Shown piece by piece: positions 505 to 4,438 of a stretch of 31,781 nucleotides of DNA; within the stretch, counting starts at the first letter, position 1, and every line of letters begins with the position of its first letter. Under the pieces are notes generated by a model. That model saw only the letters and a program-made list of their open reading frames with translations, did not search any database and was not told the DNA's origin. The stretch comes from a virus (taxonomy: Duplodnaviria; Heunggongvirae; Uroviricota; Caudoviricetes): the IMG/VR virus record IMGVR_UViG_2579778929_000008. One strand, given 5' to 3'. The translations under genes and the position numbers were made by a program.

Positions 505-676
505 TTAGCTTGCATCGGACTTTGCATATTTAAAGAAGTGCTGGTGGTGACTGGTTGCTGTTTTTCATTTCCACAGAACAAAATCAGAGAAACTATATCT
601 AATAGTTGCATTGAATCACTGACGAGACAGCCTCATATTTATCAGGACTGGTGTACGTCCAATACAGGAGGTTGTG

Positions 677-766
677 GTGCTGGTTCTCAAATGTGCGCTG
701 GCTATTGCGGCTGTAATGGCGATTTATTTTCTTGCCATTGTTCTTATGGATCGCCTTTCTGACTGA
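677..766 (+). CDS. Small hydrophobic peptide (29-30 aa), GTG start, candidate membrane peptide
   Basis: CAGGAGG (665-671) lies 5 nt before GTG at 677 (alternative GTG at 674). Frame reads (M)LVLKCALAIAAVMAIYFLAIVLMDRLSD then TGA at 764-766. Single predicted transmembrane helix. Below the 60-aa ORF-track cut-off and in a different frame from track ORF 415..762. Confidence 0.3.
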   Translation: MLVLKCALAIAAVMAIYFLAIVLMDRLSD

Positions 767-808
767 TTGCATATTGGCGAGGTAACGGGAGTTAAGTAGA
801 ATGCCTGC

Positions 809-920
809 GGGTGCTTGAGGCTATCTGCCTCGGGCATGAACACCAAAGGCAGATAGAGAAAAGCCCCAGTTAACATTACGCGTCCTGCAAGACGCTTAAC
901 ATTAATCTGAGGCCAATTTC
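809..920 (+). promoter_or_regulatory. hok mRNA 5' leader (tac/ucb-like region), putative -10 TAGAAT at 796-801 just upstream
   Basis: GTGCTTGAGGCTATCTGCCTC...GGCAGATAGAGAAAAGCCCC resembles the 5' leader of plasmid R1 hok mRNA as I recall it, with the same stem-forming repeats (CTGCCTC / GGCAGA). Confidence 0.4.
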
Positions 921-935
921 ATGCTAGACACATGT
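865..935 (-). ncRNA. sok: Expected Sok-like antisense RNA (position approximate)
   Basis: Placed by analogy with hok/sok loci, where Sok is antisense to the mok translation-initiation region. No promoter was confidently identified, so coordinates are an estimate. Confidence 0.25.
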
Positions 936-1133
936 AGGTTAGCCTCTTACGTGCCGGAAGGCAAGGAGAAGCAGGCTATGAAGCAGCAAAAGGCGATGTT
1001 AATCGCCCTGATCGTCATCTGTTTAACCGTCATAGTGACGGCACTGGTAACGAGGAAAGACCTCTGCGAGGTACGAATCCGAACCGGCCAGACGGAGGTC
1101 GCTGTCTTCACAGCTTACGAACCTGAGGAGTAA
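921..1133 (+). CDS. mok: mok-like overlapping reading frame (modulator of killing)
   Basis: ATG at 921 opens a 70-codon frame that overlaps and ends with hok at 1133, the arrangement of hok/mok loci. Confidence 0.5.
   Translation: MLDTCRLASYVPEGKEKQAMKQQKAMLIALIVICLTVIVTALVTRKDLCEVRIRTGQTEVAVFTAYEPEE
978..1133 (+). CDS. hokD: Hok-family type I toxin, 51 aa (HokD/RelF-like)
   Basis: AAGGAG (963-968) then ATG at 978. Product MKQQKAMLIALIVICLTVIVTALVTRKDLCEVRIRTGQTEVAVFTAYEPEE matches my recollection of E. coli HokD/RelF. TAA at 1131-1133. Confidence 0.85.
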   Translation: MKQQKAMLIALIVICLTVIVTALVTRKDLCEVRIRTGQTEVAVFTAYEPEE

Positions 1134-3010: not shown

Positions 3011-3763
3011 ATGAACCTTGAAGCCTTACCAAAATATTACTCCCCAAAATCTCCAAAATTGAGCGATGACGCTCCAGCGACAGGCACCGGTTGTTTAACA
3101 ATTACGGATGTAATGGCAGCGCAGGGGATGGTGCAGTCGAAAGCACCACTTGGGTTGGCCTTATTTCTGGCAAAAGTTGGTGTTCAGGACCCTCAGTTTG
3201 CGATTGAAGGCCTGCTAAATTACGCGATGGCACTGGATAACCCGACATTGAACAAATTGAGTGAAGAAATCCGGTTACAGATTATTCCTTACCTCGTGAG
3301 TTTTGCCTTTGCTGATTACTCCAGGTCTGCGGCAAGTAAGGCTCGCTGTGAGCATTGTTCAGGTACGGGATTTTATAATGTATTGCGCGAAGTGGTGAAA
3401 CACTACAGACGCGGGGAATCTGTAATCAAGGAAGAATGGGTGAAGGAACTATGTCAGCATTGCCATGGTAAGGGCGAAGTCAGCACAGCGTGCAGAGGGT
3501 GTAAGGGTAAAGGGATTGTTCTGGATGAAAAAAGAACCCGGTTTCATGGCGTACCGGTATATAAGATTTGTGGGCGTTGTAATGGAAACCGGTTTAGTCG
3601 TTTACCGACCACGCTGGCACGACGTCATGTCCAGAAGCTGGTACCAGACCTGACCGATTATCAGTGGTATAAGGGGTATGCGGACGTCATTGATAAACTG
3701 GTAACAAAGTGCTGGCAGGAAGAAGCATACGCGGAAGCGCAATTGAGGAAGGTGACGAGATAA
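3011..3763 (+). CDS. quuQ: Late-gene antiterminator Q (250 aa, zinc-binding)
   Basis: GGAG (3000-3003) 7 nt before ATG at 3011 (track ORF starts at TTG 2981). Cys clusters CEHCSGTG...CQHCHGKG...CRGCKGKG are typical of phage Q proteins. Sits immediately upstream of the lysis region. Confidence 0.8.
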
Positions 3764-3795
3764 ATGATTTTTGCTGAAGATGGCGACATGATGTT

Positions 3796-3824
3796 TGCAT
3801 TTTTCAAAAAACATGGATAAGATT
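3796..3824 (+). promoter_or_regulatory. Candidate Q-dependent late promoter (pR'-like): TTGCAT - 17 nt - TAAGAT
   Basis: Weak -35/-10 hexamers about 35 bp downstream of the Q stop, followed about 50 nt later by a strong terminator. This geometry resembles lambda pR'-tR'. Sequence evidence is weak. Confidence 0.25.
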
Positions 3825-3870
3825 TTCTCAACGATGGGCTTTGTGTATCCGACGTTTAGAAAAAAGTAGA

Positions 3871-3896
3871 AAACCCGCTGATAAGCGGGTTTTTGT
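3871..3896 (+). terminator. Intrinsic terminator (tR'-like) downstream of Q
   Basis: AAAA-CCCGC-TGATAA-GCGGG-TTTTT; the hairpin is flanked by an A-run and a T-run, so it could act in both directions. Confidence 0.6.
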
Positions 3897-4269
3897 GCTT
3901 TAAATGGGGCAATAGAGATATTGAATCTCATCCCGGGATAAACATTGGGAGTTGAAGGTCCACGCGAACCATTTATCCGGCAAAATTCCACGCGTAATCC
4001 TGTGGTAATTTCTTCTGCATCTCGAAGATTGAGAGCTGAAACGTGAAGCTGGGCATCGATACGCCATCGGATGGGAATATAAGACCTTTGCTGCTTTTGT
4101 AGTCAAAGTTTTTGACAATTCCTGTCATTTTAGGGGACAGAAAAACTCCTTAATACTGATAACCTGGTGCACCATACACACGTTCCTGGAGAAAACTACT
4201 TTGTTGATAGGGTTGAAGGTGGCTGGATGTCTAAAATAAACATTGCTTCATATGTTCAACTATGAGTTA

Positions 4270-4438
4270 ATGACTGCGTCGGTTTGAAGAACAGACGATA
4301 TACGAAGTAGTTTACTAAAGCAGTTCTCATTTCAGGTGTTATTCACTTATTCCTTCTTTGAGTCTCTCCAATTAAGTACGAAGTCGTTTCTGTTATGCAA
4401 ACCATTTATGCCGAAAGGCTCAAGTTAAGGAATGTAGA
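4270..4438 (+). promoter_or_regulatory. Long cold-shock-type 5' UTR of the cspB-like gene
   Basis: About 170 nt of leader containing TCGGTTTGAAGAACAGACG near its 5' end and GCCGAAAGGC near the start codon, both reminiscent of the cspA-family 5' UTR. Boundaries approximate. Confidence 0.45.

Follow-up and report, generated by a model that had tools for sequence, protein, structure and literature searches.

A conserved 29-codon reading frame for a predicted membrane microprotein lies upstream of hokD in a Qin-type prophage of Escherichia coli

The stretch of DNA analysed here (31,781 nt, IMG/VR record IMGVR_UViG_2579778929_000008; hereafter the window, whose positions are used for all coordinates given without a locus name) comes from a defective Qin-type lambdoid prophage of Escherichia coli, of which it forms the right part, and contains hokD, rem, ydfU, ydfT/Q, csp, the lysis genes, and the head and tail genes. 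The left arm of the prophage is replaced in the window by the IS5-like element ISKpn26. Between this element and hokD lies a small open reading frame (ORF) on the plus strand that encodes a 29-amino-acid hydrophobic peptide, MLVLKCALAIAAVMAIYFLAIVLMDRLSD, referred to here as the microprotein (677–766; GTG start and TGA stop at 764–766). It is identified as a coding sequence (CDS) by the conservation of its frame, by its ratio of nonsynonymous to synonymous divergence (dN/dS) and by retapamulin-assisted ribosome profiling (Ribo-RET) of BL21. The start codon is preceded at a distance of 5 nt by the Shine-Dalgarno (SD) sequence CAGGAGG (665–671, with AGGAGG at 666–671), and a putative sigma-70 promoter (611–639, plus strand) is recognised further upstream by its conserved hexamers, with a -35 of TTGAAT (611–616), a 17-nt spacer and a -10 of CATATT (634–639). 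The left limit of this module in the window is the right terminal inverted repeat of ISKpn26 (489–504, the reverse complement of GGAAGGTGCGAATAAG), followed by the insertion point TTAG (505–508); the transposase of the element ends at 357 according to the Prokaryotic Genome Annotation Pipeline (PGAP) annotation of an identical genome. On the right, a promoter scan places the plus-strand hokD promoter, TTGGCG-17-TAGAAT, at 774–802, only 7 bp past the stop codon of the small gene. The hokD mRNA 5' leader and sok antisense region of this neighbouring type I toxin-antitoxin system follow (809–983, plus strand; Rfam RF01794 sok, 117.1 bits, E = 7e-28), and the hokD CDS (978–1133, plus strand; PGAP annotation of the identical genome) begins 211 nt downstream of the stop codon. 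An earlier sequence-only reading had noted a CAGGAGG with a GTG 5 nt behind it, located between IS5 and the hok promoter, and direct reading of the letters and the feature positions above confirm both points.

The frame of the small ORF is closed upstream by an in-frame TGA at 620–622, and GTG codons are present at both 674 and 677, so that the ORF listing gives a 30-amino-acid frame at 674–766. The codon before the second GTG varies among relatives, being GTG, GCC, GTC, TAT or ATC, and the position equivalent to 677 is always GTG, or ATG on the Shigella virulence plasmid pINV (GCC GTG in E. coli strain 20 and GTC ATG on pINV). Since the start at 677 is conserved and the GTG at 674 is not, the gene is assigned to 677–766; of the 29–30 codons proposed earlier, the longer frame exists, and the 29-codon version is the conserved form. 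The peptide is predicted from its sequence to consist essentially of one hydrophobic helix (L2–M24) with a short charged tail (DRLSD), and its best 19-residue stretch has a mean Kyte-Doolittle hydropathy of 2.73. The whole window was screened for ORFs of 20–60 amino acids with an SD-like motif 4–9 nt upstream and a 19-residue stretch with a mean hydropathy of at least 2.0. Only hokD and the microprotein ORF pass this screen in all 31.8 kb, and 100 shuffles gave a mean of 0.05 ORFs with a maximum of 1. A small hydrophobic ORF led by an SD sequence therefore exceeds chance expectation here, which supports the earlier description of a single-helix hydrophobic peptide with a strong SD that is physically tied to the hok/sok locus.

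Homologous loci were collected mostly by a scan with a DNA pattern internal to the ORF, giving 134 loci in total. These contain 32 distinct homologous CDSs encoding 21 peptides, with no premature stops and with the stop codon mutated in one. Across the 49 distinct homologous segments, the sense frame is uninterrupted in every one and four other frames in none; the antisense frame that overlaps it fully is interrupted in 11 and often has no ATG. The ORF is 77–96% identical between locus types, and the 66 nt upstream, containing the promoter and leader, are 33–68% identical. Nei-Gojobori (NG86) dN/dS values lie between 0.10 and 0.49 in 19 of the 21 pairs of locus types, most of them at 0.1–0.4. 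The replacements are conservative, exchanging V, I, A and T within the helix and D, E and N or R and H in the tail. A script counted 22 third-position, 13 first-position and 7 second-position differences across variants, so differences appear to fall mainly at third codon positions; a hand count from the alignment of the pINV copy with the window gave 9 third, 9 first and 2 second. The divergent homologue L140 has an in-frame insertion of 6 nt (two codons) that adds Leu-Val. At positions outside the scan pattern, the distinct variants show 16 synonymous to 23 non-synonymous changes against an expected 42 to 109, an excess of synonymous change that appears real but moderate. Judged by these comparisons, purifying selection acts on the reading frame, on its SD and on its start codon in Escherichia and Shigella prophages, four isolated temperate phages and the Shigella virulence plasmid.

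The hexamers TTGAAT and CATATT, separated by 17 nt, occur at the same distance from the start codon in all six locus types and in L140. The -35, -10, SD and start keep a fixed spacing in types A–E and in L140, although the spacer and leader have diverged almost completely, to 33–65% identity. Homology of types B–D to type A starts just upstream of the -35, and the conserved unit is therefore taken to be promoter, SD and ORF together. The hexamers thus resemble a phylogenetic footprint of a putative promoter, with a predicted transcription start near 646. The GGAG core of the SD is kept in nearly all variants, and two rare variants have GGGGG. The predicted fold of 645–810 does not differ from shuffled sequences (z = 0.74), which led to the rejection of a structured RNA element; neither the minimum-energy nor the centroid structure pairs the SD. 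A terminator-like hairpin within the ORF (701–720) is weak, with three G-C pairs, and was treated as chance. The -10 motif CATATT is present twice in this region, at 634–640 as the putative -10 and at 767–773 just past the stop codon, where it abuts the hok -35 (TGATTGCATATTGGCG). Five of the six locus types retain the two of them, and in a class of loci that lack hok the downstream copy reads CATACT; the doubling could be chance or a shared protein-binding site.

Evidence of translation is available for an orthologue. Fesenko et al. 2024 ('The Cryptic Bacterial Microproteome', PMC11188072) re-analysed the retapamulin ribosome profiling data of Meydan et al. with smORFer, and their Table S4 contains the entry NC_012971.2:1591437-1591524(-), VLVLKCTLAIVAVMAIYCLVIVLMDHLSD, with TIScounts 13, TISfraction 1, RPFcounts 38 and RPFfraction 0.90. 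The entry is of class 'Entero67K' and belongs to cluster Escherichia_98807, which has 389 members with dN 0.074, dS 0.161 and dN/dS 0.46. The site was checked and is the orthologue, 214 nt upstream of hokD in BL21(DE3). Ribosomes are thus shown to initiate at the orthologous start codon in BL21(DE3), with a weak signal, and the ribosome profiling proposed by the sequence-only reading as a check is weakly positive for this orthologue. A deletion in BL21(DE3) fuses a truncated DUF977 gene to the microprotein leader and removes the -35 and -10 (locus L138, 3938–4345; NC_012971.2 1591437–1591844), so translation in this strain must use read-through of upstream prophage transcripts. In BL21(DE3) the annotated DUF977 CDS extends, in another frame, over the initial 40 nt of the small ORF. 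Frame conservation, purifying selection and translation evidence agree, with all counts small, and they indicate that 677–766 is a real protein-coding gene that is conserved and weakly translated.

The sequence-only reading had also offered that the ORF could be the remnant of a longer gene disrupted by IS5, for which the proximity of the IS5 end, 172 bp upstream of the start, is the only point in favour. The element is inserted at TTAG, approximately 107 bp upstream of the putative -35 and therefore well upstream of the conserved hexamers, and the frame is bounded by the TGA at 620–622. In IS5-free relatives conserved DNA runs on leftward across the insertion point, with GGACTAGAAGG joined directly to TTAGCTTG, for approximately 35 bp left of TTAG, including the hairpin GTCCGCTTCTCGCTCAAAGCGGAC, and then gives way to unrelated cargo genes. 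The 29-codon frame has identical boundaries, at both start and stop, in E. coli strains 20, 2A and P4 and in the phages Evi, Tritos and mEp460_ev081, all of which are free of IS5. Because these relatives share the same 29 codons, the ORF is not a gene remnant; this explanation is refuted for practical purposes, and IS5 left the promoter-SD-ORF module whole. The hairpin at the left end of the conserved block has a perfect 8-bp stem (GTCCGCTT-CTCGCTCA-AAGCGGAC) and directly follows the cargo genes (L004, ~2965–2990; L002, ~3965–3990). It may be a terminator or a recombination boundary, and the window no longer has it, IS5 and an associated deletion having taken its place.

Among 5,426 complete E. 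coli genomes, 1,892 contain at least 80% of the 151-bp region around the ORF, with 81–100% identity. The pattern scan identified the module in more than 120 IMG/VR viral contigs, and among GTDB species representatives it returned only E. ruysiae, S. flexneri and four contigs from metagenome-assembled genomes. A protein homologue search with a tandem-duplicated query likewise returned only Escherichia and Shigella entries, most of them N-terminal extensions of the same ORF made by gene callers. The family is therefore restricted to Escherichia and Shigella and sporadically annotated. Four isolated temperate phages carry the module (Tritos, Evi, mEp460_ev081 and HannyBb), and the gene is found in none of their annotations.

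The hokD gene follows the ORF in 100 of 111 evaluable loci, at exactly 211 nt in 93 and at 191–212 nt in seven, and HOK_GEF genes also come directly after the divergent homologues L140 and L141. An intact ORF (the ...VVLMERLSD allele) with no hok is present in nine viral contigs and on the S. flexneri chromosome; homology to the window ends approximately 28 nt past the stop codon, and a convergent DUF1971 gene is found right of the module in place of hok. On approximately 135 pINV plasmids of S. flexneri, S. boydii, S. dysenteriae and enteroinvasive E. coli (EIEC), an intact copy with an ATG start is found upstream of icsP. In pINV locus L008 the ORF (3037–3126) is followed by a remnant of the hok promoter and leader (~3127–3223) and, approximately 290 bp beyond the ORF, by icsP (3417–4364). 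The degenerate hok promoter of pINV reads TTGGCG-18-TAGAAT, and a partial 5' leader comes after it. This copy is located in the ospZ(nleE)–icsP intergenic region that has been studied for regulation by H-NS and VirB; if the microprotein acts on membrane physiology, hok toxicity or phage exclusion, an expressed gene would thereby be placed within the long regulatory region upstream of icsP. Conversely, phage 933W and Sakai-type hokW loci lack the ORF, and their homology to the window begins only at 789. The ORF is thus a separate, mobile module that commonly rides with hokD through a non-obligatory link.

The cargo to the left of the module varies by locus and includes DUF4145 proteins, an acetyltransferase, QueH, a dATP/dGTP pyrophosphohydrolase, HigBA, and a trio of adenosine deaminase, Ham1 and SIR2_2 genes. 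The module lies at the right-hand boundary of this variable accessory or defence slot, which in lambdoid prophages is situated between the replication genes and the nin/Q region. The trio is found in the hok-less class (L076, 2653–5026; eight similar IMG/VR loci; the S. flexneri chromosome, L015), immediately left of the module, as three co-oriented and tightly packed genes encoding an adenosine deaminase (PF00962), a Ham1-like nucleoside triphosphate pyrophosphatase (PF01725) and a SIR2_2 protein (PF13289). This arrangement looks like an anti-phage defence cassette.

The likeness to type I toxins raised by the sequence-only reading is one of size, hydrophobicity and neighbourhood. Under this explanation the microprotein would be the membrane-depolarising toxin of an unrecognised pair, with its translation repressed by an antisense or base-pairing small RNA (sRNA). 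The E. coli type I toxins Hok/Gef, TisB, IbsC, ShoB, LdrD, DinQ and ZorO share with it a length below 60 amino acids, a single hydrophobic helix, a charged end and a location in mobile or prophage DNA; at 29 amino acids with a hydropathy of 2.73, the peptide has the dimensions of a small, hydrophobic, membrane-targeted toxin, it adjoins hok/sok, and its GTG start and 13 start-site reads are compatible with tight expression. A minus-strand site TCCATA-18-TAAATT (7/12 consensus match) within the ORF recurs in five of the six locus types, and RNA made from it would be antisense to the SD and start. The suggested search of toxin families gave nothing in its favour: with E values allowed up to 10, the microprotein matches neither Hok/Gef (PF01848), Ldr, Ibs, TisB and Fst nor any further model of Pfam, NCBIfam, PHROG or PADLOC. 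The Rfam search identified no sRNA over or beside the ORF; apart from the hok/sok leader it gave sub-threshold noise. In the mRNAs of type I toxins the SD is typically sequestered, whereas here the leader is short and unstructured, and the strong SD is exposed. In the suggested check for an antisense promoter, no minus-strand promoter reaches 9/12, and the 7/12 site, the only one that recurs in position, lies in coding sequence, where codon constraint explains its recurrence. The locus types share no related DNA upstream of the -35, and hence no conserved divergent antitoxin sRNA gene. The toxin idea is thus not supported, and it is considered doubtful, with a small share of the probability left to it.

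Two further explanations treat the peptide itself as irrelevant. The ORF could be a cis-regulatory appendage of hokD, its transcription or translation reading into or occluding the hok promoter 7 bp downstream and so tuning hok/sok expression. The fixed position of hokD behind the ORF, the HOK_GEF genes directly behind L140 and L141, and the lack of an intrinsic terminator from the stop codon at 766 to the hok start near 809 all fit this view. A regulatory role of this kind would not account for constraint at the amino acid level (dN/dS below 1, conservative replacements and an in-frame indel) or for the persistence of the intact ORF where hok is missing (pINV, the S. flexneri chromosome and the hok-less prophages), and many loci of the hokD type, 933W and Sakai hokW among them, function in its absence; the explanation is accordingly rated improbable. 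Alternatively, the ORF may be non-functional, consisting of conserved DNA at a recombination junction of the cargo hotspot, or of sequence upstream of the hok promoter, that stays open by chance and undergoes pervasive low-level translation. Its position exactly at the boundary of the mosaic cargo slot, the weak Ribo-RET signal, the moderate dN/dS on few sites and the limitation of the family to Escherichia and Shigella are all consistent with such an origin. However, only the sense frame stays open, in every distinct segment, the changes are biased to third positions, the insertion in L140 is in frame, and the ORF is far better conserved than its own leader. The SD and start are also kept, and the start is upgraded to ATG on pINV, where DNA identity has fallen to 77%. 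A non-functional frame is therefore unlikely.

The preferred reading, to which a probability of about 0.6 is given, is that 677–766 is a real and independently equipped gene for an inner-membrane peptide that serves as a prophage accessory factor. The best guess for the role of the microprotein is thus that of a prophage accessory peptide of the inner membrane. In lysogens the gene would be transcribed from its own weak sigma-70 promoter (611–639), and in lytic growth it would also be reached by rightward phage transcription. The peptide would then insert into the inner membrane and may act as a 'moron'-type accessory factor, through helix-helix contacts or mild perturbation of the membrane, independently of the cis-linked hok. 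It is also conceivable, though unlikely, that the microprotein takes part in hokD-type loci as a third component acting at the protein level, or that it is a membrane effector in its own right. It would then either be a small transmembrane helix that binds and modulates Hok-family toxins, wherever in the genome they are encoded, or another inner-membrane target (immunity or tuning), or form a new type I-like toxin family with an unseen antitoxin RNA. Such a role would explain why the gene travels with hokD and is nevertheless kept intact on pINV and by the hok-less prophages, which have lost the linked hok. Should the microprotein affect membrane physiology, hok toxicity or phage exclusion, one of the best-studied toxin-antitoxin loci would gain a further component.

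Several observations weigh against the accessory-gene reading. The metagenomic homologue L141 (3001–3147) is frameshifted by a 1-nt insertion after codon 6. The numbers are small, as the gene has 29 codons and each pairwise comparison involves 2–12 synonymous differences, and the scan pattern itself prescribes many of the first and second positions of codons 9–19, which inflates the apparent conservation there. Testing the helix for periodicity, as expected of a conserved interaction face, gave no significant result (p = 0.19), and this pattern-biased outcome was not used. The putative promoter matches the consensus at 8 of 12 positions and is not called by a stricter scan, and the terminator scan found no intrinsic terminator from the stop codon at 766 up to the start of hok transcription near 809. 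The published cluster dN/dS of 0.46 is modest and the 13 Ribo-RET reads are a weak signal; the authors of PMC11188072 caution that low start-site signals are possibly spurious or reflect low-level translation. As BL21 lacks the promoter, its Ribo-RET data are also uninformative on promoter activity. The frameshift of L141 reflects either faulty assembly or a true pseudogene; for this homologue the gene caller predicted a 48-amino-acid product that starts at an upstream ATG.

Among characterised proteins, the non-toxic E. coli inner-membrane regulators AcrZ, MgrB, MgtS, CydX and YohP are similar to the microprotein in size, in having a single transmembrane helix, in their SD-led monocistronic layout and in their under-annotation. 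These are core-genome genes with known partners, whereas the microprotein is borne by prophages or plasmids, and is found only in Escherichia and Shigella. The morons of prophages, for example lambda bor and lom, share with it a variable accessory slot, promoter-like signals of their own and dispensability for phage functions, the last because many lambdoid phages are without the gene. It differs from morons in having no terminator of its own when linked to hok; its promoter-like footprint is conserved, and the expression data come only from the promoter-deleted BL21.

The description of the peptide as unannotated holds at this locus, where PGAP places nothing under the ORF in 29 of the 30 listed full-length matches, and fails elsewhere, as homologues are annotated sporadically. 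The one PGAP 'hypothetical protein' among the 30 listed matches (H9) is a different ORF that spans the IS5 junction. A homologue is annotated as WP_000960667.1 at the homologous site in E. coli strain 20, and others are called 'membrane protein' or 'conserved hypothetical protein' in the records of REL606, BL21(DE3) and Shigella. Further deposited names are 'hypothetical protein', 'conserved hypothetical protein [REL606]', UniRef A0A0M1UIT1 and GenBank ACT39199.1/ACT43394.1. The window allele (F18, I21) is a rare variant of four loci that has been deposited once, as OSK39484.1. The window gene belongs to the same family as Entero67K cluster Escherichia_98807 and WP_000960667.1, with 72–93% identity among aligned variants and the same position upstream of hokD; the BL21(DE3) member, VLVLKCTLAIVAVMAIYCLVIVLMDHLSD, is 83% identical to the window peptide. 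The catalogue and database entries give no description, promoter, context or function, the cluster being one table line of 67,297. A full-text literature search with the peptide sequence returned no paper, literature searches on hokD, Qin and small ORFs returned no characterisation of the microprotein, and it is absent from the supplements of the Sakai ribosome profiling paper on small genes. No family match to the peptide was found in Pfam, NCBIfam, PHROG or PADLOC up to E = 10, and no relative was found in the PDB. The microprotein is thus already known as an anonymous RefSeq/GenBank entry and as one of the 67,297 catalogue clusters, with no individual description.

The ORF region is present in about a third of complete E. 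coli genomes and in essentially all matched Shigella/EIEC virulence plasmids, yet it is usually unannotated. The 'intergenic' DNA upstream of hokD is therefore not empty, and the gene offers a clean and well-supported case of a conserved microprotein of prophages, one that ought to be called by annotation pipelines. Other reading frames in this region were also considered. PGAP calls a 64-amino-acid 'hypothetical protein' (WP_315747918.1, identical genome) at 339–533, running from the 3' end of the IS5 transposase across the inverted repeat into the flank, and this ORF is almost certainly an artefact of the IS5 junction. A 115-amino-acid plus-strand ORF in another frame (415–762) was rejected as its start lies inside IS5. 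A 57-amino-acid antisense ORF (599–772, minus strand) was also rejected, its ATG being lost or stops being gained in many variants. The annotation of phage HannyBb partly includes this antisense ORF, with two minus-strand CDSs there (L003, 3954–4243), and these calls are probably spurious. Beyond the hokD CDS, the 3' end of the gene and its terminator (1142–1223) exhibit a sub-threshold match to the Rfam family isrK (25.7 bits with a gathering threshold of 50, E = 0.0024), which is driven mainly by two hairpins and a terminal U-run.

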